Of a stretch of DNA of 24,865 bases, positions 2 through 24,548 are shown piece after piece. This DNA is from an uncultured Gammaproteobacteria bacterium. GTDB taxonomy: Bacteria; Patescibacteriota; Patescibacteriia; Patescibacteriales; UBA12465. The stretch is from contig CAZERN010000001.1 of assembly GCA_964514675.1 (NCBI GenBank), positions 1 through 24,865 of the forward strand, read 5' to 3'. The translations under genes were made by a program, and so were the position numbers. Within the stretch, counting starts at the first letter, position 1; each line of letters starts with the position of its first letter. The notes under the pieces were generated by a model. That model made no database searches and had not been told where the DNA came from. It saw only the letters and a program-made list of their open reading frames with translations.

Positions 2-1027
2 AGAAGCCGTTCCTGGCCGCGGACTATAACGAGAGATATAGGCTAAATCAAAATTTAACTCAGTAAATAATTTGAAAGTATTATTAAACTGAGCTTCAGT
101 TTCTCCTGGAAAACCAACGATAACATCAGTGGTGATTGCTATGCCTGGACGAGCAGCGCGCAGGCGAGAAATTAAATCTTTAAAATGAGCCACCGTATAA
201 TTACGGTTCATTGCTTTTAAAATTTCGTCATCACCAGATTGAACAGCTAAATGCAGGTGATTAACTACTTTTTCCGAAGTGGCAATCACACTAATTAAAT
301 CAGGGCTTAAATCTTTGGGGTGGCTGGAAGAAAAACGAACCCAAAAATTTCCCGGAAAACTAGCTACTTCTTTTAAAAGCCGGGGAAAATTATAATCACC
401 ACTGCGATAACTATTTACATTCTGGGCAATTAAATTTATTTCTTTATAACCCATGGCCAAGAGTTTCTTTACCTCGGCGAGAATTTCGTCTGCCGGGCGA
501 TAAACTTCACGTCCACGAGCATAAGGAACAACGCAATAAGAACAAAAATTATCACAGCCATTACCAATCGGGATGTGAGCCCGATAACTACTTTCATAAC
601 GAGCGGGAATCTTTAGATACTCTTCCCCGCGCTCTTGGCGCTCAGTCTCATAGAGTTTGCCGGCATCCGCTTGATCTGGGACAGTTTTTGCCGCTAATAG
701 TTCCACTAATTTAGGCAAACGATTAATATTTACAAACAAATCAACCTGACCCTTAAGGCGGCGCTTAACATCAGGACGATAAGCTAGACAGCCCGTAATA
801 ACAATTAAGGCTTGAGGATTTTTCTTACGCAACTGGTTAACACGACCATAAACCCGGTCTTCAGCGGACTGACGGATGCCACAGGTAACAAAAACAACCA
901 AATGGGCACTTTCTGGCTGCTTAGTTTCAATATAACCAGCCTGGTCCAAGTAAGAGGCCAGGCGTTCGCTATCGGCTTTATTCATTTGGCAGCCAAGGGT
1001 AATTAAATGGTAAGTGGCTTTATTCAT
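2..1027 (-). CDS. miaB: tRNA-2-methylthio-N6-isopentenyladenosine(37) synthase MiaB, 3' end runs off the window
   Basis: Manual translation from ATG 1027: MNKATYHLITLGCQMNKADSERL, VFVTCGIRQSAEDR, radical-SAM motif GCDNFCSYCVVPYARG, SSSHPKD, HLAVQSGDDEILKAMNR, TTDVIVGFPGETE, YSPRPGT. GCQMN marks MiaB rather than RimO (GCPKN). Absent from the ORF track because there is no stop in the window. Confidence 0.93.
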   Translation of the reverse strand, partial: MNKATYHLITLGCQMNKADSERLASYLDQAGYIETKQPESAHLVVFVTCGIRQSAEDRVYGRVNQLRKKNPQALIVITGCLAYRPDVKRRLKGQVDLFVNINRLPKLVELLAAKTVPDQADAGKLYETERQERGEEYLKIPARYESSYRAHIPIGNGCDNFCSYCVVPYARGREVYRPADEILAEVKKLLAMGYKEINLIAQNVNSYRSGDYNFPRLLKEVASFPGNFWVRFSSSHPKDLSPDLISVIATSEKVVNHLHLAVQSGDDEILKAMNRNYTVAHFKDLISRLRAARPGIAITTDVIVGFPGETEAQFNNTFKLFTELNFDLAYISRYSPRPGTAS

Positions 1028-2780
1028 TGGTTAAAGATTTTATTTGGTAGAGAGTGAAGTCGCGACCGATAAATTTTTGCGGCTCTAATTGTAAGCCAAA
1101 CTCCGGCAAACGGCTAGCATTTAAATATTCTAAATCAATTTCCGAATAAGTAAAGTTTAGGTAATAAACAGGATAATGATTAAGTAATTTTTTCAAAAAA
1201 GGATAGTAAGGCGGTTCGTGCATCAGCCCCATAATCACCCGACGCTCTGGAAACAAAACCTTATCATGATACTGGGTTAAGATAATCGCCTCAGTCGGAG
1301 TCAAACTTAAAACTGTGCGCCCAATCTGACGGTCGGCGGCCATATTGTAAGAGAGATTGTTAAGACTCTCTTCACCAGAAAAAAGTAAAAAATTAAAAGA
1401 TTGAAAAGCAACGATTAGAAAGGCTAAAGCTAAAGAACCACTAACTAGATAACGATAGACTAAGTGACGGCGGCAAAAATAGAATAAACCGCGGGCAATT
1501 AATTCCCAAGTTAAAGCCACTAAAGGTAGGGCCATTAAATAAATCGGCAACCAATAACGAGTGTAAGAATTGCCAATGGTATGACTAGCCGCATTGGGGT
1601 TATCGGTAAAGCGCCAGGAGCCATAATATAAAATCAAAACACCCGACAAAAAAATCCAACTCAAAAGATAGACTAAATATTTTTTAGCTGGTTTTTTTAA
1701 ATTTAAAAGGAGTAAAATTAAAAATCCCAGAGCACCAAAAGCTGTTAACCAAGGAAACATTTCAACTACATAATAGTTAAACATGGCCAAAGACTGCCGC
1801 GGCTTAAAACCAAAATAGAAAACTGTATCCTTAACCGTTGTCACTAAAGCCGAAAAAGCACTTTTTAGAGATTCTCCAGATTGAAAAACAAAATTATTTC
1901 CGGCTGCCGAAATAGTTTCTAAAGAACGATTCATCTCATTATAACCGCCGTAAAAAGGAGAATTATACAACAACTGATTATAATAAAGGGTGGGCAAAAG
2001 AGCGAAAAAGAGACCAGCTAAAAAAAGTAAAATTCGGCTAAAACCAAGACGACGCCAATAGAAAAGTGCCACCAACCCCAAGACCGGTAAGAGCCAGATT
2101 ATTTCTGAAGTCCGAACCGCAATCGCCCAACCAAAGAAAAAACCAGCAAAAATTATCAACAAAGAGCCTTTAACTGTGGCCGCGCGCGGACAATCTTTAA
2201 AAAAGTTTTGCTTAATTGGCTTAAAACGACGATTAAGAGCAGTCGCCAAAAAATAAGCACCAATAATCAGCATTACCAAAAACAGAACATTATGGAACAT
2301 GCTGCGCATTGAATAATAAAAGTAGACTGGAAAAACTGCTAATAGCGCCGCAGAAATAGCGGCAATCCGCTCAGAAAAAAGGCGGCGCAAGAAAAGGAAA
2401 AAAAAGATAATTCCCAGAGCGCCGAAAAAGGGCGTTAAATAAGGAATAATAGCCGGGCTAATCCAAGCCCCTAAATAACCGTATAATAAAATTAAACCTA
2501 AAAAACTAACTGGTTTGAGCCAGCCACTATCACTTCGCATACTTCGAGGCATCACCAAATCAGAGGCGAGAATATTTGCTTCTTCAAATTGAGCAACAAC
2601 CCCTTCGGTAGCCAAACGATTAGAGAAAAAATAATTAGCCGTTTCATCAGGCGAATTCCACTTGACTAAATCTTGGTGTTGAGTGCTAAAATTAAAATAA
2701 GCTGTGCCTACAAAAAAAGCGACCGCCACAAGGAAGACGGCAATAAAATAAAGACTGGGAGCTTTTAGTCGACTATTCAT
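1020..2780 (-). CDS. Polytopic membrane protein, probable GT-C-fold glycosyltransferase (ArnT/PMT-like)
   Basis: ORF 1020..2918; likely start is ATG 2780 (MNSRLK), which removes the overlap with the divergent gene. Many hydrophobic helices, an acidic PDETANY motif in the first loop after TM1, a late TRYWLP motif and a soluble C-terminal domain. Confidence 0.7.
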   Translation of the reverse strand: MNSRLKAPSLYFIAVFLVAVAFFVGTAYFNFSTQHQDLVKWNSPDETANYFFSNRLATEGVVAQFEEANILASDLVMPRSMRSDSGWLKPVSFLGLILLYGYLGAWISPAIIPYLTPFFGALGIIFFFLFLRRLFSERIAAISAALLAVFPVYFYYSMRSMFHNVLFLVMLIIGAYFLATALNRRFKPIKQNFFKDCPRAATVKGSLLIIFAGFFFGWAIAVRTSEIIWLLPVLGLVALFYWRRLGFSRILLFLAGLFFALLPTLYYNQLLYNSPFYGGYNEMNRSLETISAAGNNFVFQSGESLKSAFSALVTTVKDTVFYFGFKPRQSLAMFNYYVVEMFPWLTAFGALGFLILLLLNLKKPAKKYLVYLLSWIFLSGVLILYYGSWRFTDNPNAASHTIGNSYTRYWLPIYLMALPLVALTWELIARGLFYFCRRHLVYRYLVSGSLALAFLIVAFQSFNFLLFSGEESLNNLSYNMAADRQIGRTVLSLTPTEAIILTQYHDKVLFPERRVIMGLMHEPPYYPFLKKLLNHYPVYYLNFTYSEIDLEYLNASRLPEFGLQLEPQKFIGRDFTLYQIKSLTNE

Positions 2781-2856
2781 ACTCTCAAATCTTATAGAAA
2801 AATACCCTTTTAAGCAAGAATTTGCTATATTTAATTTTAGACCCTCTTTGTTATCT

Positions 2857-4761
2857 ATGATCAATAAAAAAATCTTTATTACTGAAGAAGATTTTCTGGC
2901 CGGACTAAGCTTGGTCATGATTTTTGGCAGCCTGGTTTATTTTTTTTACCGACTTGATTGGCCGGGCGTGATTTTAACTTTAATTTTTAGTGCCGGAACT
3001 TTTTATTTTATTCGCCCTTATTTAAAAAAGGAACTAATGATAACTGGTAGCCGGGAGCCAGAAACAAAAATTGACTATATTTTACTAGCCTTTTTCTTGA
3101 TTGCCAGCGCTGCGGCTTGGGCGCTTTTAATTGCTGGCCGAAGTGGGGCCGCTTTAATTTCTCCTTGGCAAACAATTTCCGGTTGGTTCTTTGCCGCTTA
3201 TGCGGCGGCTACTTTTTCCCTCTTAACCCTACTATTTCGGGCTAAACTAAACAATCGCAACCGTTGGCTTTTGGGGGCGCACTACGCCCTCTCCTTTAGC
3301 GTTGCGGCTGTAGTTTATAAATTAGGTTACGGCTTTGATCCTTTTATCCATCAAGCGAGCATGGAGATGATTATTGATCAAGGCTTTATTCTGCCAAAAA
3401 CCCCTACTTACTTAGGAGAATATTCTTTAGTAACCATTATTTCCCGCTTTAGTGGTTTAAGTATTTATAGTCTAAATAAATTTTTAGTACCAATTAGCGC
3501 CGCCTTATTACTACCGGGGGCAATTAAAACTTTAGGCGCTAGTCGCGGTCGAACAACTTCAGTTTTACTAGCTGGAATATTAATACTTATTCTTCCCTTC
3601 ACCTTTTTAATTGTCAGCACTCCTCAAAATTTTGCTTATCTATTTTTACTTTTAGCGCTACTTTATTCTTTATCGGGACAGCGCGTCTTAGCACTCTTGC
3701 TAAGCCTAGCCACTTTCGCCATCCATCCCATCGCCGGCCTACCCGCTTTAAGTTTTTGGGCCTTTAGAGAGCTTGATTATCGCCACCCTTTAAAAAATAA
3801 AAGAAATTACAGAAGGAGACGTAATTTTATTTTCTTAGGAAGTCTAATTTCCCTGCCGCTAGCTTTTGCTCTAATCAACAAGCAGTCACTTCTAAATTTG
3901 CGTTTCTCGCTAAACGGCTTTAACGCTTTAACTTTTTGGCCCAATCACGGCGCTAATCTTGGCCCCTTCTATCTCAATTTTCCCTATCTTTTTTCTTTCC
4001 TTATCTGGCCAGCCTTCATCTCTCTGGCAATTTATGGCGCTTTAAAATGGCGTAATTTTGAAAATGAAAAACTGGCCACCTGGAGAACAATCGCCGCTTT
4101 AATTGGAGCCTGGATGTTAACCGCTTCCCTCTCTTTTGATTTTTTAATTGACTACGAACAGGCTGATTATTTAAAACGTTTAATTTTAATAATCGCCCTT
4201 TACCTGACTCCTTGGCTTATTTCGGCTTTAGGTGAACTGGCCTCAAGAGCACGAGAAAAAAATCTAAAGGGCAAATTTGTCTTTATCCTAGCCGGGACTC
4301 TAATTATTACTAGCAGCCTTTATCTCTCTTATCCCCGCCATGATTTATTTGTAAATTCTCGAGGTTATAGTGTTTCTGAATCTGATTTAGAAGCGGTTCG
4401 TCTAATCGATCAAGATGCCGGCGGCGCTGATTATGTGGTTTTAGCTAACCAACAGACAAGCGTGGCCGCCTTAAAAGACTCTGGTTTTGGGCGTTATTTT
4501 GAAACTGAGGCTGGGTCAGTCTTCTTTTACTCTATTCCCACCGGAGGCCCTCTTTATCAATATTATTTAAGTTGGGTTAATGAAGGCCCGCAAGAACAAT
4601 TAGTTGAAGATGTAAAAGAATTAACACAAGCGCAAAGAGTTTACTTAGTCATTAACCGCTATTGGTATCGGAGTGATCGACTAATTAGCGAAACGCGCCT
4701 TCAGGCACTTAACTCCTGGGTAACCGATGACCAGGAAGTTTATATTTTTAGACTCAATTAA
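2857..4761 (+). CDS. Polytopic membrane protein, possible GT-C-fold glycosyltransferase
   Basis: ORF 2848..4761; likely start ATG 2857. More than 10 hydrophobic segments, a GFDPFIHQA loop motif (DPxxH, seen in GT-C first-loop motifs), DYEQADYLKR and a soluble C-terminal domain. Confidence 0.55.
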   Translation: MINKKIFITEEDFLAGLSLVMIFGSLVYFFYRLDWPGVILTLIFSAGTFYFIRPYLKKELMITGSREPETKIDYILLAFFLIASAAAWALLIAGRSGAALISPWQTISGWFFAAYAAATFSLLTLLFRAKLNNRNRWLLGAHYALSFSVAAVVYKLGYGFDPFIHQASMEMIIDQGFILPKTPTYLGEYSLVTIISRFSGLSIYSLNKFLVPISAALLLPGAIKTLGASRGRTTSVLLAGILILILPFTFLIVSTPQNFAYLFLLLALLYSLSGQRVLALLLSLATFAIHPIAGLPALSFWAFRELDYRHPLKNKRNYRRRRNFIFLGSLISLPLAFALINKQSLLNLRFSLNGFNALTFWPNHGANLGPFYLNFPYLFSFLIWPAFISLAIYGALKWRNFENEKLATWRTIAALIGAWMLTASLSFDFLIDYEQADYLKRLILIIALYLTPWLISALGELASRAREKNLKGKFVFILAGTLIITSSLYLSYPRHDLFVNSRGYSVSESDLEAVRLIDQDAGGADYVVLANQQTSVAALKDSGFGRYFETEAGSVFFYSIPTGGPLYQYYLSWVNEGPQEQLVEDVKELTQAQRVYLVINRYWYRSDRLISETRLQALNSWVTDDQEVYIFRLN

Positions 4762-4775
4762 AAAAATTTACTAAC

Positions 4776-4810
4776 AAAAAAACAACGCCCATTCAGGCGT
4801 TGTTTTTTTT
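4776..4810. terminator. Bidirectional intrinsic terminator
   Basis: AAAAAAACAACGCC-cattca-GGCGTTGTTTTTTT perfect stem with A/T tracts on both sides, between convergent genes. Confidence 0.9.
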
Positions 4811-4825
4811 ATTAGAGAAAAAATC

Positions 4826-7222
4826 TTAATGACGACTTTCCTGGTAAGAAAAGACTGGACCGACTGCTAAATATTTACCGGAATTAAGCTCATAAACCAA
4901 GGCCATAAGATTAATACCAGTGGTTTGGACCAAAGAATGATTAGGAACTTTAAGCCGAAGTAAATTCTCATTCGGTTCTGTCAATTTATATTGCTTAGCA
5001 AAGGAGCTGATAAAATCTTGATCATTGCCACTTAAAGCTTCATTATTTAATTCCTTTTTAATAATTTCAGCAATTTGATTTAACTTGATATTTTCATCTC
5101 TTAAGGTAACTCCTACCGAGGGAACCTTTTTATTAATCCCCATTCCTAGAAATAAGCCGTTAATCATTTCGTTATCAGCGATAATTTTTTTAACCAAAGA
5201 ATAATTAGGCTCTATGTAAAAGTTATCATTTAAAACAACGTCCGTATTTAAACCGTTACGGTTTTCCGATAACCCGGCCGGGGCAAGGTTGGCCAACGGA
5301 AGCTGCAAATCAACCCAAGATCCAGCCGCAGTATCAACCAAACGTTGCGACCAAGTAGGTGTGCTGGCGTAAATTTGCATCTGCTTATTATTGGTAGAGA
5401 AAAGCGTTTCAATGGTACCGAGGGTGGACCAATAATTAGTATCATGCCAAACCGGCCAAGACTGTAAATCACTCTGGAGCTTGGCTAATTGAGTCGGGTA
5501 TTTTTCATATTGCGAATTGATTTGCCAGTGCGTAGACAGAGCTACTTTATCAGCAACTAGAGCAATTACATCTAAACCGCTACCGTTACAACGCTCGCCG
5601 CCTTCACGACACAAGGTAACATTATTTTTATCATTATTACTTCTAAATCCTTCTTCTCCAGTAAAAACTCCCAATTCAGACCCACTTAGACGCTTAAAAA
5701 TATAATCATTAGGCCAATAATAATCAGCTAACAGTTTAAACCCTAACTGGGACTTATCTTCCCCCTTATCTAAAGCCCCTAAAGATGGATTAAATTTCAA
5801 AGCTAAAAGTTCCTGACGCAATTTTTCTAAATTAGCCTCACTGTCAACATTTTCCCAAGCGAATAGAGTGGCGGGATCATAATCAGCGCCAAACAAATGC
5901 TGCATTGCCTCATCATATTGGCGATAAGTTAAATCATCACGCAGTCCGCGATAATAAGACAAAAGCTTATAAACTAAGGCCCAACGATTTTTTAATTCTT
6001 GATCATTGGAAAAATCTTTAGTAATAAAAGTGGTCGCAGTTAAACTAATTCGGGCATCATCTTTATCAAGCAAACAATCGGGACACTTTTCGTCTTTAAC
6101 GGCCAACGGAAAGACGGAATTAAGCCAACGGCTAGCTAAATAGAAATTTTTTAATTTTTCAGTGCGCTGATATTCAGCCGGAATTTCAAATTCTCGGTAA
6201 TCGCGCTCGTAAAGAAGAACTGGCGATTTAGTTTTCTCCCGGCCACTACGGATTAACTCTACCTCCCGAGCAGCATCTTTTTGTAGATACGGCAGAATAG
6301 TAAAATAAAAGGTGTTTGCTTCACTAGCCCCAAACTTGGTCATACTTTTACTATCCGGATCAATTTGATCAGCCCTCGGCTCCAAAAGTTCTAGGGCAAC
6401 AGCAAAATAGGCCATTGCTAAGCGCTGAGATTCTAAAATGGGATCATTAATATTACCAATCTCTGCCAAACGATTTTCATAACGATAACGCGCTTGTTCA
6501 TAAAGAGAGCGTGAGATTTCGTGAATATTGTTATAAAAAATTGTCTCTTCAATGTCTTTAAAAACCTGTTTAATTGTATTTTGGTGATAGTGTAATAAGA
6601 AATCGCTAGTAATTAAAAGGGGGATGCCTTTACCTGATAACCAAGAATAGGCTCCATAAAAATCAGTTATTTCTTTAGAATCAGGGTTTTGTAAAACTGA
6701 AAAACCGTCCTTGTTTAAATTTTCTAAATACTGATCCAATTCAAGACGACGGGAAAGATCGTAGTAATTTAAAACATCGATTTTTATATTAAGCGGCAAA
6801 GAATAATCAACAAAAGAAAATTCTGGAACTCCTGGCGGGGCTTCATAAAAATCCCGAAAATTATATTTTTCTAATTCGCCAGAAAGTAAAGATTGGTCCC
6901 AATTATCAATACTGGTTGTCGCTTGATCAGTCGGCAAATGCACATCCGTACTAGTCGCCCCTTCTAAGGGGGCTTCGTTTACTGGATCAATAATTACCGG
7001 CTGGGTTGGCGATTTAGGGGGCATTAAGATTCTTACCGAAATCCAAATAGCTAAAGCGAAAATAAGCAAAACGGCTAAGCCGATAAAAATTTTGCGCTTA
7101 TTTTTCTCCCAAAAAGACAGGGGCGCTTCTTCGCTTGAAACCCGAGGAGACAAACCGTTAATAGGCGTCCCGACATCAGGCTTAGGTCTTGAAGTGGCAA
7201 TAGGATCTAAATCAGAAAACAT
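4826..7222 (-). CDS. DUF3160-like membrane-anchored protein
   Basis: 798 aa; one N-terminal TM (IFIGLAVLLIFALAIWISV) and a Pro-rich linker; segments PLLITSDFLLHYHQ..FKDIEE, AAGSWVDLQ, FYIEPN and LAVGPVFSYQE resemble DUF3160 conserved blocks as recalled. Confidence 0.7.
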   Translation of the reverse strand: MFSDLDPIATSRPKPDVGTPINGLSPRVSSEEAPLSFWEKNKRKIFIGLAVLLIFALAIWISVRILMPPKSPTQPVIIDPVNEAPLEGATSTDVHLPTDQATTSIDNWDQSLLSGELEKYNFRDFYEAPPGVPEFSFVDYSLPLNIKIDVLNYYDLSRRLELDQYLENLNKDGFSVLQNPDSKEITDFYGAYSWLSGKGIPLLITSDFLLHYHQNTIKQVFKDIEETIFYNNIHEISRSLYEQARYRYENRLAEIGNINDPILESQRLAMAYFAVALELLEPRADQIDPDSKSMTKFGASEANTFYFTILPYLQKDAAREVELIRSGREKTKSPVLLYERDYREFEIPAEYQRTEKLKNFYLASRWLNSVFPLAVKDEKCPDCLLDKDDARISLTATTFITKDFSNDQELKNRWALVYKLLSYYRGLRDDLTYRQYDEAMQHLFGADYDPATLFAWENVDSEANLEKLRQELLALKFNPSLGALDKGEDKSQLGFKLLADYYWPNDYIFKRLSGSELGVFTGEEGFRSNNDKNNVTLCREGGERCNGSGLDVIALVADKVALSTHWQINSQYEKYPTQLAKLQSDLQSWPVWHDTNYWSTLGTIETLFSTNNKQMQIYASTPTWSQRLVDTAAGSWVDLQLPLANLAPAGLSENRNGLNTDVVLNDNFYIEPNYSLVKKIIADNEMINGLFLGMGINKKVPSVGVTLRDENIKLNQIAEIIKKELNNEALSGNDQDFISSFAKQYKLTEPNENLLRLKVPNHSLVQTTGINLMALVYELNSGKYLAVGPVFSYQESRH

Positions 7223-11017: not shown

Positions 11018-12076
11018 TTAAATTTCCAACTGTTTAATTGCTTTTTCATCATGGCGACTAATATTTTTAGGAATTTCCACCCTAACAGTCACAAATTGCT
11101 CCCCCTGACCAAAGCCATTTAAACGCAAGAATCCTTTGTTGCGAAGTTTAAAAACGGTTCCTGACTGAGTACCGGCTGGAATTTTTAAAGTTACTGGTCC
11201 GTAAACAGTCTCCACATCCACTTTATCCCCTAAGATTGCCTGTTTAATATTAATCGTCAACTCGGTTCTAATATCATAACCATCTCTTTTGAAAATTTTA
11301 TCGGGAGCTACCTTAATCTGCAAATACAAATCACCAGCTGGACCACCTAAGAAACCATCATCTCCGTAACCTGAGAGACGAATTGTTTCCCCATCAGCAA
11401 TCCCAGCGGGAACACGAACTTTAATTTTAGTAGATTTTTTTACCAAACCGTCGCCGTTACATTTGGAACATTTCTGACTATAAATTTTGCCTTCGCCTTG
11501 ACACTGCGGACAAATATTCTTTGTTTGGATATTCCCTAAAATCGTCCGAGAAACACCAATTACATAACCAGCTCCTTGGCAAGTATTGCAAGTCTCGACT
11601 TTTGAGCCTGGCTCAGCCCCATCACCGTGGCAATGGACACAAGTCGTTTGCTTACTAAAAGAAATCTCTTTTTCTAAACCAAAAACTGATTCCTTAAAAC
11701 TTAAATCAAGACTTAACTCTAAATCTCTGCCTCGGCGTGCTTGTTTTCCTTCCCGGCCACGAGCACTACCAAAACCAAAAATATCAGAAAAACCACCAAA
11801 CAAATCATCCATGTTAATGCCGCCTTGAAAATTTGACCAATCGAATCCAGCTCCACCGGCGCCACCACTAAAAGCCGCCTCACCAAATTGGTCGTATTTC
11901 TTCCGCTTATCATCACTGCCTAAAACCTGATAAGCCTCATTAATCTCTTTGAATTTTTCTTCATCGCCACCTTTATCAGGGTGATGCTCATGAGCTTTTT
12001 TGCGAAAAGAACTTTTAATTTCCGCAGCGCTAGCATTTTTATCAACCCCTAAAATTTTGTAATAGTCTTTTGCCAT
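11018..12076 (-). CDS. dnaJ: Chaperone DnaJ (class A)
   Basis: MAKDYYKILGV, HPD motif, G/F region, four CxxCxGxG repeats, C-terminal domains. Start ATG 12076 (ORF track starts at 12136). Confidence 0.97.
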   Translation of the reverse strand: MAKDYYKILGVDKNASAAEIKSSFRKKAHEHHPDKGGDEEKFKEINEAYQVLGSDDKRKKYDQFGEAAFSGGAGGAGFDWSNFQGGINMDDLFGGFSDIFGFGSARGREGKQARRGRDLELSLDLSFKESVFGLEKEISFSKQTTCVHCHGDGAEPGSKVETCNTCQGAGYVIGVSRTILGNIQTKNICPQCQGEGKIYSQKCSKCNGDGLVKKSTKIKVRVPAGIADGETIRLSGYGDDGFLGGPAGDLYLQIKVAPDKIFKRDGYDIRTELTINIKQAILGDKVDVETVYGPVTLKIPAGTQSGTVFKLRNKGFLRLNGFGQGEQFVTVRVEIPKNISRHDEKAIKQLEI

Positions 12077-12080
12077 AAAT

Positions 12081-12139
12081 TTCTTTAGCGAATAAAGCGC
12101 CCCAGCACGTGGAGGCTGCGGCGCTCTAACGCTCAAGAA
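12081..12139 (-). promoter_or_regulatory. Long imperfect RNA hairpin filling the dnaK-dnaJ spacer
   Basis: mRNA UUCUUGAGCG-UUAGAGCGCCGCAGC-CUCCACGU-GCUGGGGCGCUUUAUU-CGCUAAAGAA pairs over about 23 positions by hand folding; it ends 4 nt before the dnaJ AUG. Confidence 0.65.
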
Positions 12140-12142
12140 TAA

Positions 12143-14041
12143 TTATTTTTTTTCTTCAACTTCACCCTCAACAACCGGCTCATCACCATCAGTTTTATTT
12201 TCATCATCGCCTTTTTTATCTTCAGGCTTAGCTTCAGCGGCAGCTTTTTCATACATCGCTGCCCCGATTTTCTGAGCAGCCTGATTAACCGCCTCTAATT
12301 GTTTTTTAACGCCTTCTAAGTCGTTGGCTTCCTTAACCTTTTTAAGTTCAGCTATTTCCTTCTCTAGCTCTGCCTTATCTTCGGCTTTCATTTTATCACC
12401 TGATTCTTTTAACATCTTCTCGGTAGAAAAAATTACCGCTTCAGCCTGATTAGCTAGCTCAACACTTTCTTTTTTCTTTTTGTCATCTTCAGCATAAATC
12501 TCAGCATCATGTTTCATTTTCTCCACCTCTTCTTTTGATAAACCAGAAGAAGCAGTAATGGTAATTTTCTGCTGTTTACTGGTTGCTTTATCAGTCGCGC
12601 TAACATTTAAAATGCCGTTAGCGTCAAGATCAAATTTAACTTCAATCTGAGGAACGCCTCGGGGTGAGGTTGGGATACCATCAAGAATAAAGCGCCCTAG
12701 AGTCTTATTATCGGCAGCCATTGGCCGCTCACCTTGGACAATATGAATTTCAACACTTGTCTGACCATCAGACGCCGTTGAAAAAATTTGTGACTTGGAG
12801 GTAGGAATAGTTGTGTTCCGATCAATTAAAGGAGTAGCCACACCGCCCATAGTTTCAATCCCTAAAGTAAGCGGAGTAACATCTAAGAGTAAGACATCTT
12901 TGACATCACCCTGTAAGACGCCGGCTTGAACAGCCGCCCCTAAAGCAACTACTTCATCAGGGTTAACACTTAAATTTGGCTCCTTGCCAAAAAATTCCTT
13001 AACTTTTTGCATTACTAAAGGCATGCGTGTCATTCCGCCAACTAGAATCACTTCTTCAATGTCATCAACCTTAAAACCAGCATCAGCTAAAGATTTTCGA
13101 CAAGGCTCTAAAGTTTTTTCAACCAAATCCGTAACCAAAGACTCAAGCTTAGCGCGGGTAATTTTCTTAACTAAGTGCTTGGGGCCATTTTCGTCAGTAG
13201 CGATAAAAGGTTGATTAATTTCGGTTTCTTGAGCTGTTGATAGTTCAATCTTAGCTTTTTCAGCCGATTCTTTAATCCGTTGTAAAGCGAGGGTGTCCTT
13301 AGAGAGATCAATCCCTTCATCTTTTTTAAACTCTTCAATAATCCAATCTATAATTCGCTTATCAAAGTCTTCGCCGCCTAAGTGAGTATCACCATTAGTC
13401 GCTTTTACCTCCACGGTATCAGCGGAAATATCAAGGACGGAGACATCAAAGGTACCGCCACCTAAATCATAAACGACTACTTGTTGACCTTGTTTTTTGT
13501 CAAAACCATAAGCTAAAGCGGCTGCTGTTGGTTCATTGATAATCCGTTTTACCTCTAAACCAGCAATTGTCCCTGCGTCTTTTGTGGCTTGACGTTGAGC
13601 GTCATCAAAATAGGCCGGCACCGTAATAATTGCTTCAGTGATTTTTTCACCAAGCTTAGCTTCGGCATCCGCTTTCAGCTTACTTAAAATCATCGCTGAA
13701 ATTTCTTGAGGGGTATACTCTTGATCATTAATTTTAACTTTGACACCAGTACCTGATTGAATAATTTTATAAGAATTATTCTCTAAATCACCCTTAGCGC
13801 TGACATCATTAAAATTCCGACCAATTAAACGCTTAACTGCATAAATCGTGTTCTCCGGGTTAATCACCGCCTGCCGTTTAGCAGCCGAGCCAACCAAGCG
13901 TTCCCCGGATTTAGAAGTAGCGACAACAGAGGGAGTTGTCCGCAAACCTTCAATGTTTTCTAAGATTTTAGGACTGCCGCCCTCCATAATCGCCATCGCG
14001 CTATTGGTAGTACCTAAATCAATTCCTAATATTTTACTCAT
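12143..14041 (-). CDS. dnaK: Chaperone DnaK (Hsp70)
   Basis: [67 protein letters not shown]. Confidence 0.99.
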
Positions 14042-14082: not shown

Positions 14083-14514
14083 TTATTTTTTAGTTTCAAT
14101 TTTAATATTTTTAGCTTCACCGCTTTCTGCTTTCGGGATGGTAATCTTTAAAACACCACTCTCTGCTAAAGCTTTAGCATTAGCGCCGTTAACTTTTGCT
14201 GGTAAAGAGATTGCTCGATAAAAAGAGCCCCGACGAATTTCCTTACGATAATAATTTTTATCATCCACTTCGCTGCGCTTTTCACTTTGCCCTTTAATAC
14301 AAAGGGTGTCGTTTTCAATAGAGACATTTACTTGCTCCGGATCAATCCCCGCTAACTGAGCTTCTACGATAATATTATCTTCGTCTTCATAGATATCAAC
14401 CGCTGGCGTAAATCCTTCTTGTTGACTACGAGTTGCGGGTAAGAACTCACCGAACGCCTTATCAAAATCATCAAAGGGGTCGGCAAATAAGGGGGTCCAT
14501 TTTATTAATGACAT
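14083..14514 (-). CDS. Small heat-shock protein (Hsp20 / alpha-crystallin family)
   Basis: PAVDIYEDEDNIIVEAQLAG, YYRKEIRRGSFYRAISLP, GVLKITIPK, terminal IxI motif (IKIE). Confidence 0.95.
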   Translation of the reverse strand: MSLIKWTPLFADPFDDFDKAFGEFLPATRSQQEGFTPAVDIYEDEDNIIVEAQLAGIDPEQVNVSIENDTLCIKGQSEKRSEVDDKNYYRKEIRRGSFYRAISLPAKVNGANAKALAESGVLKITIPKAESGEAKNIKIETKK

Positions 14515-14579: not shown

Positions 14580-15419
14580 TTAAACTTCTTTATTTTCTGG
14601 TTGGCTTTGACCAACGATTACCTTAGCGGCGCGAATTAAACGACCATTTAATTTATACCCGGGCATCACCTCCTTTATCACTAAATCACCAGCGCCTTCA
14701 ATTGCCTCCATCGTATTTAAATCAAAAGGCTGATTAACGGTAACAACTTCTTCAACGCCTTCAGTATTTAATAATTCTTTAAATTGCTTGAGAACATGCT
14801 GGACACCAATCACCCAGGCATTTTTAACTTCAGTTTCCGGTAGATTAAATAAAGACAATTTTAGATGATCATAAACCGGCAACAATTCTTCAAGTAAGCG
14901 CCCATTAGCGTATTTAATAAATTCGGTTTTTTCTTGGGCTGTTTGCTTAATTAAATTTTGATAATCCGCTAAAGAGCGATGATATTTATCTTTATACTGA
15001 CTCTGCTCTAAATAATTATGTGCCTTCAAGGAGACGGCAATCACTAAGGGGCAAATATTTTTTTTCGCCGTCATTTCATCCTTAGAAAACCACTTCACTT
15101 CACTATACTTTTCAGAAACTAATTTTGTTTCTCCGGAAAAATCACTTATCAAAAAGCGAAGCAAATAAACATCCTCTATTAAATCTCCAGCGATAAGTTG
15201 TGGGGACTCAATATTTAAATTTAAAACACTTTTTACTTTAGCGCTTAATTGCGCCTCCGGAATATTGGAATCTCGTAATGAAAAGGAAGGGGCGCGCCAT
15301 TGTTGGCTTCTTTTATCTTTAACTAATAAAATCTTTTCTTCCTCATTAATAATTAAGGCACTGACCGCCAGCTTAGGGGCATCTTTTTCGATGTTTTGCG
15401 AATTAACTGTTTTAGACAT
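14580..15419 (-). CDS. grpE: Nucleotide exchange factor GrpE with an N-terminal degenerate Nudix domain
   Basis: C-terminal half is GrpE (YHRSLADYQN, LEELLPVYDHL, FDLNTMEA, PGYKLNGRLIRAAKVIV). Residues ~15-135 follow a Nudix pattern (AVSALIINEEEKILLVK, WRAP, EVKWFSKDE). Likely start ATG 15419. Confidence 0.9.
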   Translation of the reverse strand: MSKTVNSQNIEKDAPKLAVSALIINEEEKILLVKDKRSQQWRAPSFSLRDSNIPEAQLSAKVKSVLNLNIESPQLIAGDLIEDVYLLRFLISDFSGETKLVSEKYSEVKWFSKDEMTAKKNICPLVIAVSLKAHNYLEQSQYKDKYHRSLADYQNLIKQTAQEKTEFIKYANGRLLEELLPVYDHLKLSLFNLPETEVKNAWVIGVQHVLKQFKELLNTEGVEEVVTVNQPFDLNTMEAIEGAGDLVIKEVMPGYKLNGRLIRAAKVIVGQSQPENKEV

Positions 15420-15433
15420 AAAGACAAAAGAAC

Positions 15434-16123
15434 TTAACAATTAAATTTATTCTTTAAATAAGAAACTAAAGCCAAATTACGATCATAATCCATGCGCAAA
15501 GGACCAATTAGGCCAAAAACACCAACCGTGTTTTGATCTTTATATTTCACTAGAACTGTACTTAAAAAAGAACCAAACGGATTTTTTGAGCCGATTAAAA
15601 CATGCTCACTGTAATCTAAGCGCTCAAAGATTTGAGCAATAATCTCTTCTAACTGATCAATTATTACCGAGATATCATAAACAGCTTCTAGTTGTTTAAA
15701 TTCTGGATGCGAAAAAAGATTGGCTAGTCCGGTGTGGTAAACATTATTCTTACTAAAAGCCCAAAAAACAGCGTTATTAGATAACTCAGCCATTTGTTTG
15801 GCAAGAGCTCGGTAAGCCTCATCATCTCTAGAAAAAAGCTGGTCCAGTTGCGCTTCCTCAGTGGTTTTTAAGCGGGGAGGATTATCCTTTAAATCAGAAA
15901 GCCATAACTCGTAAGCAGACTCTGTCGGAATTCGTCCAGAGGAAGTGTGGGGCTGCATTATATAGCCCGCCTCTTCTAGTTCAGCCATCTCATTTCTAAT
16001 CGTGGCTGAGGAAACACCTATTCGCGAGGTTTTGGCCAACATCCCTGAAGAGACCGGCTGAGCAGTCTTTAGATATTCTTTAATGAGCGCTTTTAAAAGC
16101 GTGAGCTTGCGAGAATCTAACAT
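15434..16123 (-). CDS. hrcA: Heat-inducible transcription repressor HrcA (short form, 229 aa)
   Basis: LLKALIKEYLKTAQPVSSG, VSSATIRNEMAELEEAGYIMQPHTSSGRIPT, C-terminal GVFGLIGPLRMDY. Start ATG 16123 lies downstream of the promoter. Confidence 0.93.
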   Translation of the reverse strand: MLDSRKLTLLKALIKEYLKTAQPVSSGMLAKTSRIGVSSATIRNEMAELEEAGYIMQPHTSSGRIPTESAYELWLSDLKDNPPRLKTTEEAQLDQLFSRDDEAYRALAKQMAELSNNAVFWAFSKNNVYHTGLANLFSHPEFKQLEAVYDISVIIDQLEEIIAQIFERLDYSEHVLIGSKNPFGSFLSTVLVKYKDQNTVGVFGLIGPLRMDYDRNLALVSYLKNKFNC

Positions 16124-16142: not shown

Positions 16143-16171
16143 ATTATATAAAAGCTTAGCAGTCTTGTCAA
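16143..16171 (-). promoter_or_regulatory. Consensus sigma70/sigmaA promoter of the heat-shock operon
   Basis: TTGACA (16171-16166), 17 nt spacer, TATAAT (16148-16143). Confidence 0.9.
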
Positions 16172-16182
16172 TAGACTGCTAA
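16156..16182. promoter_or_regulatory. CIRCE operator, variant
   Basis: TTAGCAGTC-TTGTCAATA-GACTGCTAA versus the canonical TTAGCACTC-N9-GAGTGCTAA; perfect inverted repeat upstream of hrcA. Confidence 0.92.
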
Positions 16183-18465: not shown

Positions 18466-19167
18466 ATGAAACTACTCTTAATTGAAGACGATTTTTTTAT
18501 TGCAAAAAATTTGATTTTATTTTTAAAAAAACGGGGACATTTAATTAATTGGGCTAAAGATGGAAAAACGGGTTTAGAACTCGCCCAAAAAGAAAATTAT
18601 CATTTAATCATTACTGACTATTTGCTCCCAAAACTAAATGGCCAAGAGATTATTAACCATTTACGAGCCTGGGGCTACGATAAACCAATTCTTGCCATCT
18701 CTGTTTGTCAGGAGGTAGAGAAAAAAGTGGCCCTTCTTAATGAAGGAGCTGATGACTACCTGAGCAAACCTTTTTTCTTAGATGAACTGCAAGCGCGAAT
18801 AGAAGCCTTAGTTAGGCGACAACCGGCGATAGAAGCTAATCTCTACTATGATTCAGATTTGGAATTAAGCTCTGCTAAAAGAGAGCTGCTCTACCAAAAT
18901 AAAACAATTCCTTTAACAAACAAAGAATTCCTTCTACTTAAATTGTTAATGACTAACCCCGGTCGAATTTTATCTTGTCAGGAAATCTGCGAACGCGCCT
19001 GGGAAGAGGAGGATTTTTGCCGTCGGAATATAGTTGAAGTTTATATTCTAAAATTACGCGAGAAATTAAAATTTAAAAAACCGTCTCCAATTGAAACAGT
19101 TCCTAGTTGCGGTTATCGTTGGCGAGCGAAAAATTCAAAAATCATTGACCACTTCCCCTCTTACTGA
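18466..19167 (+). CDS. OmpR/PhoB-family response regulator with an intact receiver
   Basis: LIEDD, phosphoacceptor D51 (IITDYLLP), S79, GADDYLSKPF, winged-helix LTNKEFLLL and IETVPSCGYR. Confidence 0.92.
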   Translation: MKLLLIEDDFFIAKNLILFLKKRGHLINWAKDGKTGLELAQKENYHLIITDYLLPKLNGQEIINHLRAWGYDKPILAISVCQEVEKKVALLNEGADDYLSKPFFLDELQARIEALVRRQPAIEANLYYDSDLELSSAKRELLYQNKTIPLTNKEFLLLKLLMTNPGRILSCQEICERAWEEEDFCRRNIVEVYILKLREKLKFKKPSPIETVPSCGYRWRAKNSKIIDHFPSY

Positions 19168-21250: not shown

Positions 21251-21895
21251 ATGCATTTAACGATTTTTAATTTTGGTAAAATACCCCAGTCTATAGAAGG
21301 AGTAAATTTCACTTTTGAATTGGGGAACGTGAGCAAGGGCGAGATTTCTATTTCGCCAAAAAGCGAGCTTCTGCTTATTTTCCCAGAAAATAATACTACT
21401 CTCGCTAAAAATCTCTGTCGCCAGTTAAGAAAACAGGGAGTTTTTTTACCAATGATTGTGGTTGGGGAAAAAATCAGCCCCACTCAAGGAAAAATCTTTC
21501 TCAATCAGGGGGCAGATGATTGCTTGCGCGGGGAGTGGAAGATTATTGAACTCCAAGCCCGCCTAGAAGCCCTCCTTCGCCGGCCCGAAATTTTTGTTAA
21601 TTCCCCTTTAAAAATAAAAAACTTAATTATTGACTTCTTCAAACGCCAGGCCTGGATTAATAAAAAAGAATTATTTTTAACGCCCCGAGAATTTGATATT
21701 CTAGAATACTTAAGCAAAAACCAGCAGCGCCTAGTTACCCGCGATGAATTAAGTTTAGAGCTTTGGAATAGTGATTTTAACGATCTTTCTCTGACTGTTA
21801 ATAGTCACCTTTATAATCTTCGTACCAAATTAAAAAAGAGTGGTTCCTTAATATCAATAGCAACGGTTTCCGGAGGAGGCTATTTTTTAAAGTAA
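21251..21895 (+). CDS. OmpR-type winged-helix regulator with a degenerate (pseudo-)receiver
   Basis: C-terminal LTPREFDILEYL, VNSHLYNLRTKL, IATVSGGGY; receiver remnants GADDC and ELQARLEALLRRP but no acidic pocket, phospho-Asp or Lys. Confidence 0.85.
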   Translation: MHLTIFNFGKIPQSIEGVNFTFELGNVSKGEISISPKSELLLIFPENNTTLAKNLCRQLRKQGVFLPMIVVGEKISPTQGKIFLNQGADDCLRGEWKIIELQARLEALLRRPEIFVNSPLKIKNLIIDFFKRQAWINKKELFLTPREFDILEYLSKNQQRLVTRDELSLELWNSDFNDLSLTVNSHLYNLRTKLKKSGSLISIATVSGGGYFLK

Positions 21896-21906
21896 TTTTT
21901 AAAAAT

Positions 21907-22806
21907 ATGAAAATTTTTGTTCTTTTCTTTTTTTTAAGCGCCCCAATCTTAATCGCTGCTCTATTTTTCCAATATTATTATTTTAAGAAAAAACTTTCCC
22001 AAAAGAACAAACTTCTAGCCAGTCAAACCCAGCAAGTTTTAGCTGATTTTAAAAAAAGCCAAGCCAAGGAATTAGAAAAATATCACTGCCTAGTTGAAGC
22101 TGGCCGTCTTGCCGGCGGCATTATCCACGACTTTGCTAACCCCCTAACTGCCCTGGTTTTGAACCTAGAACAAATTCGTTTTCGCGATTTAAGTGAGATT
22201 AAAACGGCAGAGTGGGAACAAAAAATAAATGAGGCAAGCCTCCTCTGTCAAAGAATGACTCATCTCTTAAAAGCAGCTAGTAAGCAATTAAGTTTTCAAA
22301 CAGAAACCAAAGAACTCTTTTCGGTTAACGAAGAGATAGATAATGTTTTAAATCTTTTAGACTGCAAAGCCCGATCTTATAAAGTTAGCCTGCGCAGCAA
22401 TCTCGAGAAAGAAATACTCTTAAATAACAATGCTTTAAAATTCAGTCGAATTATCTGTAACCTTGTCAGCAACGCAATTGAAGCTGTGGATTCACAAAAA
22501 AAGAACTCTTGGGTGGAAATTAAAGCCCGTTTGATTAATGGGCGTCTAATAATGTCGATTACTGATAACGGGCTAGGCCTACCAGAAGACTTAAAAGAAA
22601 AATTATTTGCCCCCTTCTTCAGCACAAAAAAGAAAAAAGGCAATTTAGGTTTAGGGCTAGCGATTGTCTCAGATTTAGTAAGCAAAGATTTTTACGGAAA
22701 AATACGCGTTAGCAGTCAGATTCGAAAATTCACCGCCTTTACAATTGAACTGCCCCTTGAGATTAAAGATATAAAAATCCCAGAAGAGAGCGGGGCTTTA
22801 GGCTAG
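21907..22806 (+). CDS. Sensor-less membrane-anchored histidine kinase
   Basis: One N-terminal TM; H-box AGGIIHDFANPL, N-box NLVSNAIEA, G1 ITDNGLGL, F-box LFAPFFSTK, G2 GNLGLGL. Confidence 0.9.
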   Translation: MKIFVLFFFLSAPILIAALFFQYYYFKKKLSQKNKLLASQTQQVLADFKKSQAKELEKYHCLVEAGRLAGGIIHDFANPLTALVLNLEQIRFRDLSEIKTAEWEQKINEASLLCQRMTHLLKAASKQLSFQTETKELFSVNEEIDNVLNLLDCKARSYKVSLRSNLEKEILLNNNALKFSRIICNLVSNAIEAVDSQKKNSWVEIKARLINGRLIMSITDNGLGLPEDLKEKLFAPFFSTKKKKGNLGLGLAIVSDLVSKDFYGKIRVSSQIRKFTAFTIELPLEIKDIKIPEESGALG

Positions 22807-22876: not shown

Positions 22877-23611
22877 TTAATTAAAAAAATGAAAAGAGTC
22901 AGCTATTTTTAAATCAAAACAATTGCCAGCCGTAAAACCTAAGCCGACATTACATTCTTGCCCCAAACTCCAAAAAGCTACTTTTTTTGCTATCGGGCTA
23001 TAAACTATATAATTGGCGTAATTTACCGGGCAAAGAGTTTCGCCTAAATCTTTCCCACCCCCATTAATCTCAACTCTATAATTCCCCTCAAAACTTGTGT
23101 CTGTTTTTCCTTTATAGCGGCAACCAGCACCAAGCTTATCCTTAATTAATGAATCTAAATCTGACTCGACTTCAGTATCAAAAATAACAATGTGCCAAGG
23201 CAGGGGGTAGGAATTATCATTTTCTTTATATTCAGGGACAAAAGTGTTTTCTATTTTTATTAATTCTCCGGTTTGCAAATCAACTTCAACATTGTATTTT
23301 TGCGTTAAATAAAAATTATTATTTTTATTTAAAACCTGATTAGGAAGGAGTAAATTGAGAATAGCTTTTTCTTCGCTTATATTGCCCCACCATTTATTAT
23401 TAATTGAAGTAATGGGGTAATTAAAACTAAAGCCATATTCTTCATTTTTATATTTTATCCATTCTATTGAATCTCTAACATTTCTTGGCTCGCCTATTGT
23501 CCAAATAAAATAAAAACGGGAATATTGTTTTTTAGTTGCCACTAATATATCTAAATTATCATTTCTAAATAAATACCCCGAGCCCAATTGCTCAATGAAG
23601 CGATAATTATT
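22877..23611 (-). pseudogene. Probably 5'-truncated gene for an extracytoplasmic hypothetical protein
   Basis: No in-frame ATG; the frame stays open up to the IS end (NNYRFIEQLGSGY). Contains WIKYKNEEYGFSFNYP and four Cys but no signal peptide or TM. Confidence 0.55.
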
Positions 23612-24548
23612 TGTGACATTGCAGCGAAAGGTTTACACTTTGGGCCTCACATAACTTTTGCATAGGTGTTAGGCCGTCCATACCAAGTCCTCGATATTTT
23701 TTCTCATAATTATAATAGTGCATAAACAGATTTAGTCTGTATTGCATTTCTTCAAGTGACAATCTGGGCGGAAACCCATATCGCAAGGCCTTCTGGTTTA
23801 GGGTTTTGTGGAAGCGCTCAATCTTGCCGTTTTCTTCTGGCCAGTATGGAGTGTTCTTTCGGTGAACGATATTATATTCCTCTAGTAACAATTTTAGTTT
23901 GCCATTTAGAAATTCGGTGCCCTGATCGGTTCTGATTTTTTGAATTGTAAATGGAGCTCGTTGTAATACCTTTCTAAAAAAATCAACTGTGTTGTCTGCG
24001 TTAGCGGTTGAGTAACTCCAGACAAAGGCCCATCTAGTAGCATCATCAATAATCGTATAGATTACTTTGCCCTGCTTGTAACCGTGTGGATATTTAGTAT
24101 CCATTTGTAGCTCATATCCTGGTATTTTGTGGGCAAATAACTGTTTCTTCCATCTCTTTTTGGTGTCTATATAATAATCAGTATATCTGACTTTGTTTCT
24201 TTTTAAAATGCGATAAATGGTGGTGGGGTGTAAAGTAATATTATGTTCGTGTTGTAATCTGTCAGCGAGCGCCTCTGAGCCATCGAAACGATATTTCTTA
24301 GCTAGCTCAATGACACATAATTCTAGAGCCTCAGTCGTTCGGTTGTGGGCGGGCCCGCTTCTTCTCTTGCTTTGGGCTTCAATGATTCCGGACTCACCAA
24401 AGCGGCGATATCTGAGCAGATGTTTGTGGACGCTTTGCCTTGAGAGGTTCATTTCTTTGGCGACCGAAACAACTGTTTGCTCTTTAGAAACGATATTGTC
24501 TAATTTGGATATTAGTAACTGTATATACTTGGGGTCAAATCGATTCAT
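23607..24548 (-). CDS. IS481-family transposase
   Basis: N-terminal HTH (VAKEMNLSRQSVHKHLLRY), HPTTIYRILKR, DDE motifs LQMDTK, IRTDQGTEF and NGKIERFHKTL; single ORF with no IS3-type frameshift. Confidence 0.92.
   Translation of the reverse strand: MNRFDPKYIQLLISKLDNIVSKEQTVVSVAKEMNLSRQSVHKHLLRYRRFGESGIIEAQSKRRSGPAHNRTTEALELCVIELAKKYRFDGSEALADRLQHEHNITLHPTTIYRILKRNKVRYTDYYIDTKKRWKKQLFAHKIPGYELQMDTKYPHGYKQGKVIYTIIDDATRWAFVWSYSTANADNTVDFFRKVLQRAPFTIQKIRTDQGTEFLNGKLKLLLEEYNIVHRKNTPYWPEENGKIERFHKTLNQKALRYGFPPRLSLEEMQYRLNLFMHYYNYEKKYRGLGMDGLTPMQKLCEAQSVNLSLQCHK
23612..23640. repeat. IS terminal inverted repeat at the transposase 3' end
   Basis: Aligns with the reverse complement of 24601-24631 with two 1-nt gaps and four mismatches. 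Confidence 0.85.

Follow-up and report, generated by a model that had tools for sequence, protein, structure and literature searches.

The window analysed here is the whole 24,865-nucleotide (nt) stretch that forms positions 1 to 24,865 of contig CAZERN010000001.1 (assembly GCA_964514675.1). At positions 14580..15419 it carries a grpE gene of 279 codons (ATG at 15419, stop at 14580-14582), whose product joins a GrpE nucleotide exchange factor to an N-terminal domain of the Nudix type. The C-terminal 140 residues of this protein are a normal GrpE, and the N-terminal ~120 residues adopt a Nudix fold without the catalytic residues of the Nudix box. The protein is the GrpE of an hrcA-grpE-hsp20-dnaK-dnaJ operon of a Patescibacteria (Parcubacteria-group) bacterium, controlled by HrcA and its operator, the controlling inverted repeat of chaperone expression (CIRCE). 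An initial annotation, made from the sequence without database searches, had proposed a fusion of the two domains in one frame. The 279-residue open reading frame (ORF), with the Pfam GrpE family PF01025 at residues 138-270, bears this out. The gene lies on the minus strand, for which the initial annotation gave no indication, and the peptides PSFSLRDSNIPEAQLSAKVKSVLNL (residues 44-68) and YKDKYHRSLADYQN (residues 142-155) belong to a single unbroken frame.

Domain organization of the fusion protein

All parts of the protein are encoded on the minus strand. Residues 1-14 (15378..15419) form an N-terminal leader that is probably disordered, with a predicted local distance difference test score (pLDDT) below 50 at residues 1-11, and that differs in length between homologues. 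Residues ~15-135 (15015..15377) constitute the Nudix-fold pseudoenzyme domain (hereafter pseudo-Nudix domain), assigned by alignment, profile, AlphaFold, and Foldseek, which contains the degenerate Nudix box FSLRDSNIPEAQLSAKVKSVLNL at residues 46-68 (15216..15284). A continuous helix is predicted at residues 124-191 (14847..15050; DSSP of the AlphaFold2 model, pLDDT 85-93), and the GrpE domain, comprising the long helix, the helical bundle, and the C-terminal beta domain, occupies residues 138-270 (14610..15008).

The GrpE assignment is supported by a Pfam match of 107.1 bits (E=1e-30) against a cut-off of 25.8. In the AlphaFold2 model, this part consists of helices at residues 124-191 and 201-219, followed by beta strands at residues 222-270, and Foldseek comparison of the full-length model with GrpE structures gave TMt values of 0.76 for 1dkg_B, 0.81 for 4ani_B, and 0.73 for 9bls_C. 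In a pairwise alignment with residues 51-195 of Escherichia coli GrpE (1DKG), the fusion retains, among the residues that contact DnaK, the equivalents of R183, R186, and V192 and has tyrosine in place of F86, while R73, R74, and K82 of the E. coli protein are not retained.

The two domains do not meet at a simple boundary. The last helix of the Nudix domain starts at P124 and is predicted to continue without a break into the long GrpE helix, which serves in dimerization and thermosensing, ending at residue 191 (DSSP of the AlphaFold2 model). The initial annotation had the GrpE helix starting directly after the Nudix domain; the single frame that it described stands, and the sharp border between the domains does not, since one predicted helix spans both. 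The alignment starts at residue 51 of E. coli GrpE. The helix of the fusion is therefore about as long as its E. coli counterpart, with the Nudix domain standing where E. coli GrpE has its disordered residues 1-33.

Nudix ancestry and loss of the catalytic box

Taken as a single sequence, the N-terminal domain matches the Nudix family weakly. The Pfam NUDIX model scored 19.0 bits on the fusion protein, slightly under its threshold of 21.1, and a phmmer search with the isolated domain against the PDB gave E=0.32. After these weak matches, the identity of the domain was examined with family alignments and profiles. A profile built from 31 N-terminal domains with degenerate boxes only (alignment A2) matched 24 PDB chains at E<=1, all 24 of them Nudix proteins (best E=6.5e-4). 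Among 82 aligned family members, Pfam detected GrpE in all 82, NUDIX in 64 (E<=1e-3), and DUF1653 in 26.

Structure prediction agrees with the profiles. In Foldseek, the AlphaFold2 model of the complete protein (pLDDT 86.7) retrieves GrpE structures (1DKG, 4ANI, 9BLS) as well as Nudix hydrolases. To avoid circularity, the N-terminal domain was also modelled from an alignment restricted to the degenerate clade; the resulting model (pLDDT 90.1; predicted template modelling score 0.83) retrieved exclusively Nudix-fold structures among its top 50 PDB matches, with template modelling (TM) scores of 0.65-0.82. Residues ~15-135 belong to the Nudix homology clan by fold and descent and are not filed as a hydrolase, so that the Nudix fold proposed in the initial annotation is upheld.

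The canonical Nudix box has the consensus GX5EX7REUXEEXGU, with metal-binding glutamates. The box of the fusion protein aligns in MAFFT without gaps to the intact boxes of full-length homologues, for instance PGGHIELNEPAEEALRREIKEETGL, and none of its seven key residues is kept: G is replaced by F46, E by N52, R by A60, E by K61, E by S64, E by V65, and G by N67. The ungapped alignment and the replacement of every catalytic residue had both been noticed at the outset, and both hold in the family alignment. The Nudix mechanism depends on the glutamates of REUXEE, which bind the catalytic metals; since these glutamates are lost, hydrolysis by this route would be excluded, and the pseudo-Nudix domain, judged by its sequence, is presumably incapable of hydrolysing nucleotides in the Nudix manner.

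With small Nudix hydrolases, such as Thermus thermophilus Ndx1 (1VC8), E. coli MutT (3A6S), and BdRppH (3EES), the domain has the alpha/beta/alpha fold in common (TM 0.7-0.8), and profiles reveal its homology to small hydrolases of the MutT, Ndx1, and NudI types. It differs from them in the replacement of all seven key residues of the box and in never being free-standing. Non-catalytic Nudix folds that act as binding modules include the NrtR effector domain, the NUDT9-H domain of TRPM2, the C-terminal domain of MutY, and CFIm25/NUDT21. In these proteins, too, a Nudix fold with a degenerate box is part of a larger protein and has a non-hydrolytic role; however, no specific relationship between any of them and the domain described here is detectable, and the fusion partner is a chaperone co-factor, in contrast to a DNA-binding domain, a channel, or a glycosylase. 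In proteins of the NrtR type, for example, the Nudix-like domain is joined to a winged-helix DNA-binding domain, whereas GrpE is the only other domain here.

Occurrence of the fusion in other genomes

The identical 279-residue product is called in the independent Logan assembly DRR784975, where its neighbours are the same. Among 5.8 billion proteins searched, 448 relatives were retrieved; those of full length are 36-73% identical and are named in their sources as GrpE of Parcubacteria, Falkowbacteria, or the 'Patescibacteria group'. An orthologue with 89% identity is encoded in a metagenome-assembled genome (MAG) of Patescibacteria (L002), within a collinear 12-kb region of 85.4% overall nucleotide identity, and the GTDB scan, which holds one genome per species, contains many further, more distant orthologues. 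In total, the uninterrupted architecture recurs in dozens of species at 36-89% identity, and in many Patescibacteria MAGs the full-length homologues occupy the same position in the order PBP2-hrcA-grpE-hsp20-dnaK-dnaJ. The fusion is thus found in many independent assemblies and species, one of the points on which the initial annotation had made its proposal depend, and its taxonomic range covers many Patescibacteria MAGs, including forms with an intact Nudix box.

An artefact would require either that an adjacent Nudix gene and grpE had been joined by a sequencing or assembly error, or that translation starts at M116 and the upstream frame is untranslated. Two observations could be read in this way, namely the lack of a visible Shine-Dalgarno-like sequence between the hrcA stop codon and ATG 15419, which are 14 nt apart, and the score of Pfam NUDIX, which stays under its threshold for this sequence alone. 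Against an assembly chimera stand the same ORF in the independent assembly and the unbroken architecture of the many orthologues. An internal start at M116, which had been named as a possible objection, is rejected because M116 is not conserved in the relatives, while the domain upstream of it is conserved at the protein level, down to about 30% identity, and is under purifying selection. In addition, no stand-alone copy of the domain was found among 1.84 billion representative proteins. We regard the artefact explanation as effectively refuted.

Some related records carry unexpected titles: a 2.7-kb contig (L001) with 99% identity to the window has the label Acholeplasmataceae, and the Patescibacteria-type operon is present in many MAGs entered as 'uncultured Gammaproteobacteria' among the third-party annotation records (L003, L006, L013-L015, and others). 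Such titles probably reflect bin contamination or placeholder taxonomy.

GrpE architectures in the lineage and origin of the degenerate domain

We built hidden Markov models and used them to classify the GrpE proteins at the 80 best loci among the GTDB species. Plain GrpE with a short charged tail was found at 29 of the 80 loci, DUF1653-GrpE at 25, Nudix-GrpE with an intact box at 17, DUF1653-Nudix-GrpE at 4, and degenerate Nudix-GrpE, the form in the window, at 5. The protein search added a sixth form, degenerate Nudix-DUF1653-GrpE, of 327-329 residues. All 80 loci show grpE-hsp20-dnaK-dnaJ synteny downstream of a PBP2 gene and, because the gene position is identical, the different architectures are orthologues and not paralogues.

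An intact box, such as GHIELNEPAEEALRREIKEETGL, is present in the more distant full-length homologues P0058-P0113, which are about 38-43% identical to the fusion. Intact-box Nudix-GrpE and DUF1653-Nudix-GrpE proteins (e.g., P0110, P0059, L006-L009) share with the fusion the orthologous position, 38-43% full-length identity, and the domain order; unlike the fusion, they retain the canonical box (e.g., GHIELNETAEEALKREILEETGL), and on this basis they are probably active hydrolases. A specific substrate class for them was sought in NCBIfam and the PDB and could not be assigned, as the similarity is of a generic MutT/NudI/Ndx1-like kind, far under the equivalog cut-offs.

In a neighbour-joining tree, the proteins with a degenerate box group together as a single clade whose sister is the intact-box clade, and the fusion protein falls in the most eroded sub-clade, whose members keep 0-1 of the seven box residues; two outliers, P0056 and P0086, seem to have degenerated independently. 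The pseudo-Nudix domain descends from a Nudix-GrpE fusion in an ancestor, and sister lineages have preserved the box of that fusion intact. As the degenerate forms make up one clade and the relatives have an intact box, the family represents a series from enzyme to pseudoenzyme.

DUF1653 (PF07866), a domain of unknown function with ~70 residues, occurs on the orthologous GrpE in three fusion arrangements, namely DUF1653-GrpE, DUF1653-Nudix-GrpE, and Nudix-DUF1653-GrpE (L007, L009, L011-L031, and others; P0026-P0055, P0059, P0099). In the Nudix-DUF1653-GrpE sub-clade, DUF1653 is inserted exactly at the junction of the Nudix domain and the GrpE helix.

Sequence conservation and selection

A profile of the degenerate domain was searched against 1.84 billion representatives (clustered at 50% identity) and found six close ones at E<1e-30, each of them a GrpE fusion or a truncated or frameshifted piece of one. 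The remaining matches are two short fragments (E about 1e-11) and otherwise generic Nudix domains at E 4e-10 or weaker. The short top matches (133-200 residues) were considered as candidates for a stand-alone dead domain and were rejected as truncated or frameshifted pieces of fusions.

The domain is under purifying selection. In comparison with the 89% identical orthologue, the ratio of nonsynonymous to synonymous substitution rates (dN/dS) amounts to 0.26 over residues 1-137, compared with 0.06 over the GrpE part, and the whole fold is kept down to about 30% identity. The degenerate clade has invariant residues of its own (R88, G96, L100, K104, Y105, W110, C123, and V126, with P124 at 98%), and the invariant or near-invariant residues of the active clade, E52, R60, E61, E64, E65, H83, A91, and E104, are lost in it. 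Between the active and degenerate clades, the charge is switched at E61 (97% in the active clade) to K, at E104 (invariant there) to K, and from N to R at position 88; most degenerate members also carry E64->K, where the fusion protein has S64 together with K63.

At C123 (window 15050-15052), a Cys-Pro pair marks the start of the long helix, with C at 100% and P at 98% in the degenerate clade, where the active clade has S or another residue. In a parallel GrpE dimer the two C123 residues might lie close together and form a redox-sensitive site.

The heat-shock operon and the remainder of the window

The neighbours of the fusion gene lie on the same (minus) strand and are those of a heat-shock operon. 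The hrcA gene (15434..16123) encodes 229 residues from ATG 16123 and matches the Pfam families HrcA and HrcA_DNA-bdg; a call of 229 residues is also found in L081. The hsp20 gene for a small heat-shock protein (14083..14514; Pfam HSP20) lies between grpE and dnaK (12143..14041; PF00012), which encodes the Hsp70 partner of the fusion GrpE, and dnaJ follows at 11018..12136 (Pfam DnaJ, DnaJ_CXXCXGXG, and DnaJ_C). The order grpE-hsp20-dnaK is retained in nearly all of the 80 related Patescibacteria loci.

Upstream of hrcA, a CIRCE-like inverted repeat, the HrcA operator, is present at 16156..16182 (TTAGCAGTC-N9-GACTGCTAA) with 2 mismatches to the CIRCE consensus and 0.03 matches expected by chance. 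A sigma-70-type promoter, TTGACA-17-TATAAT (12/12 consensus positions), occupies 16143..16171 on the minus strand, with its -35 hexamer inside the loop of the repeat. The longest ORF for hrcA begins at TTG 16171, which falls within the operator, so that the true start is probably ATG 16123. The resulting 229 residues are short for HrcA, and the Pfam HrcA model is matched in the C-terminal part only.

Elsewhere in the window, three large ORFs lie at 1020-7222: one of 632 residues with a weak match to the glycosyltransferase family PMT_2, one of 637 residues on the opposite strand, which has no Pfam match and overlaps the former by about 70 nt, and one for a DUF3160 protein of 798 residues. A complete response regulator is encoded at 18466-19167. 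Positions 21251-22806 encode a protein of 214 residues in which only an OmpR-type DNA-binding domain (Trans_reg_C) and no receiver domain was detected, followed by a HATPase_c protein of 299 residues without a HisKA match. Near the end of the window, an ORF of 313 residues (23607-24548) with helix-turn-helix and rve integrase-core domains corresponds to a transposase of the insertion-sequence type, and the adjoining ORF of 236 residues (22877-23587) has no Pfam match.

Discussion

The fusion protein shares with canonical GrpE proteins, represented by those of E. coli (1DKG), Geobacillus kaustophilus (4ANI), and Mycobacterium tuberculosis (cryo-EM structure of the GrpE-DnaK complex; PMC10803776), the long helix, the bundle, and the beta domain, which are matched by its residues 124-279, as well as the arginines equivalent to R183 and R186 and the hrcA/dnaK/dnaJ operon setting under CIRCE control. 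What distinguishes it is the N-terminus. E. coli GrpE has a disordered, substrate-mimicking tail (residues 1-33) with an IIM motif that binds the DnaK substrate groove, an effect that wanes as the coiled coil melts (PMC12915176), and in M. tuberculosis GrpE substrate release requires the disordered N-terminus (PMC10803776). The fusion protein has, instead of this tail, a folded Nudix-type domain of 120 residues attached through a continuous helix, with ~14 disordered residues left in front of it.

The reading that we favour, and hold to be probable, is that of a normal GrpE exchange factor in which a rigidly mounted, non-catalytic Nudix module stands in for the tail; the module would modulate substrate release, coiled-coil stability, or both through a new, partly basic surface. 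The identity of the protein within this reading is highly probable; the mechanism is advanced tentatively, as a possibility suggested by our analysis. In such a mechanism, the GrpE dimer would open the DnaK nucleotide-binding domain and release ADP as usual. The pseudo-Nudix domain would be kept as a folded module, held rigidly by the unbroken helix at the N-terminal tip of the coiled coil, and its two copies would stand side by side in the parallel dimer, at the end that, by extrapolation from other GrpE proteins, should face the DnaK substrate-binding domain (SBD). A role as a binding or scaffold module is proposed because the domain sits where the tails of E. coli and M. tuberculosis GrpE reach the DnaK SBD; it may tune substrate release, the stability of the thermosensing coiled coil, or both. 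The clade-specific basic and aromatic residues R88, K104, and Y105, together with C123-P124, are candidates for the functional surface, and the partner could be DnaK (through its SBD or its lid), the second GrpE protomer, or a small ligand of anionic character.

Several findings weigh against this reading or parts of it. Matches to 25 NCBIfam GrpE equivalog models all fall short of the high cut-offs set for these models (the best reaches 70.6 bits where 194 are required), although such scores reflect lineage divergence and are usual for very divergent lineages. The N-terminal domain evolves faster at the protein level than the GrpE part (identities of about 30-69% against about 60%), and its most divergent segment between the window and L002 is residues 41-60, the loop of the former box, with 75% nucleotide identity and 6 of 13 residues changed, compared with 92-100% nucleotide identity per 60-nt bin in the rest of the N-terminal half. 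The sub-clade with DUF1653 at the helix junction implies that a rigid connection is not essential throughout the family, and the many orthologues without a Nudix domain imply that basic GrpE function does not require the module.

As a separate observation on the same pair of genes (window 14580-15419 and L002 6001-6840), the synonymous substitution rate (dS) is 0.19 in the pseudo-Nudix half and 1.08 in the GrpE half, i.e., ~6-fold lower in the former. The low dS and the hot spot at residues 41-60 could stem from recombination, from selection acting on the mRNA, or from a diversifying selection of the loop.

Among the other explanations, the dead Nudix domain could be a ligand sensor, as the initial annotation had suggested. 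It would bind, without cleavage, a metabolite or alarmone of the nucleotide type, for instance ADP-ribose, diadenosine tetraphosphate (Ap4A), or NAD(H), and would thereby alter the geometry or stability of the GrpE dimer and the DnaK cycle. Inactive Nudix domains that bind without cleaving provide precedents (NrtR, TRPM2 NUDT9-H, and the MutY C-terminal domain). The acidic metal ligands have given way to the invariant or near-invariant K61 and K104, which with R88 could bind phosphates without a metal, and the intact, presumably active box on the GrpE of sister lineages makes an ancestral link between nucleotides and the chaperone probable. In E. coli, Ap4A has been reported to cross-link to DnaK, GroEL, and ClpB (reviewed in PMC10148737). 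However, a conserved ligand pocket would not be expected to show a hypervariable loop at the former active site, and it is this loop with the start of the following helix (residues 41-60) that is least conserved between the closest orthologues; the box positions also vary freely inside the degenerate clade, and the active-clade invariants that probably bind the substrate (Y24, K34, K37, H83, and A91) are all lost. The sequence points to no ligand, and the active relatives fit no specific Nudix equivalog. We consider a sensor unlikely. A generic N-terminal accessory module is as likely as a sensor, because the GrpE N-terminus in this lineage also takes other modules, notably DUF1653.

The domain might also be a vestige that no longer acts as an enzyme and has acquired no other function, persisting since its removal would disturb the folding or expression of the essential GrpE. 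The frequency of orthologous GrpE proteins without a Nudix domain (29 + 25 of the 80 loci), the position of the fusion protein in the most degenerate sub-clade, and the higher dN/dS of its N-terminal domain are consistent with such a remnant. Yet a useless domain of 120 residues would be expected to be deleted from tiny, streamlined genomes, whereas this one persists throughout a deep clade (~30% domain identity), keeps a full fold at high predicted confidence, has invariants unlike those of the active clade, and evolves at a dN/dS well under 1; we judge the vestigial explanation to be quite unlikely. A bolder version of the nucleotide connection, which we think distinctly improbable, is that the Nudix-GrpE family directly links the Hsp70 cycle to a stress nucleotide. 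Members with an intact box would break down an alarmone, either a dinucleotide (e.g., Ap4A) or a compound derived from ADP, in the immediate vicinity of the chaperone, and dead-box members would be non-hydrolysing receptors in which the ligand, or oxidation of the invariant C123 at the base of the coiled coil, resets the GrpE thermosensor and the release of substrate from DnaK. If true, this would be a new regulatory input to the bacterial Hsp70 system.

Whichever role the rigid, non-catalytic Nudix module of the favoured reading may have, the pseudo-Nudix-GrpE is an uncharacterised variant of a very well known protein and not a new kind of system. Literature searches on GrpE with Nudix domains, on GrpE in Patescibacteria, and on DUF1653 yielded nothing on such an architecture, in keeping with the statement in the initial annotation that no characterised example was known to it. 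In the databases, the relatives are named merely 'nucleotide exchange factor GrpE', with one JGI entry as 'GrpE/8-oxo-dGTP pyrophosphatase MutT', so that the extra domain is invisible in current public annotation. GrpE is among the best-studied co-chaperones, and the direct action of its tail on the DnaK SBD was shown only recently. The folded modules that replace or supplement the tail in this lineage (active Nudix, dead Nudix, and DUF1653) are natural experiments on the GrpE N-terminus, and a series from enzyme to pseudoenzyme within a single orthologous gene is useful for studies of how catalytic domains are repurposed. The lineage-wide N-terminal additions to GrpE may be of more interest than this one gene, and they bear on the regulation of Hsp70 in ultra-small, host-dependent bacteria with minimal proteostasis, for which this is the only Hsp70 system.

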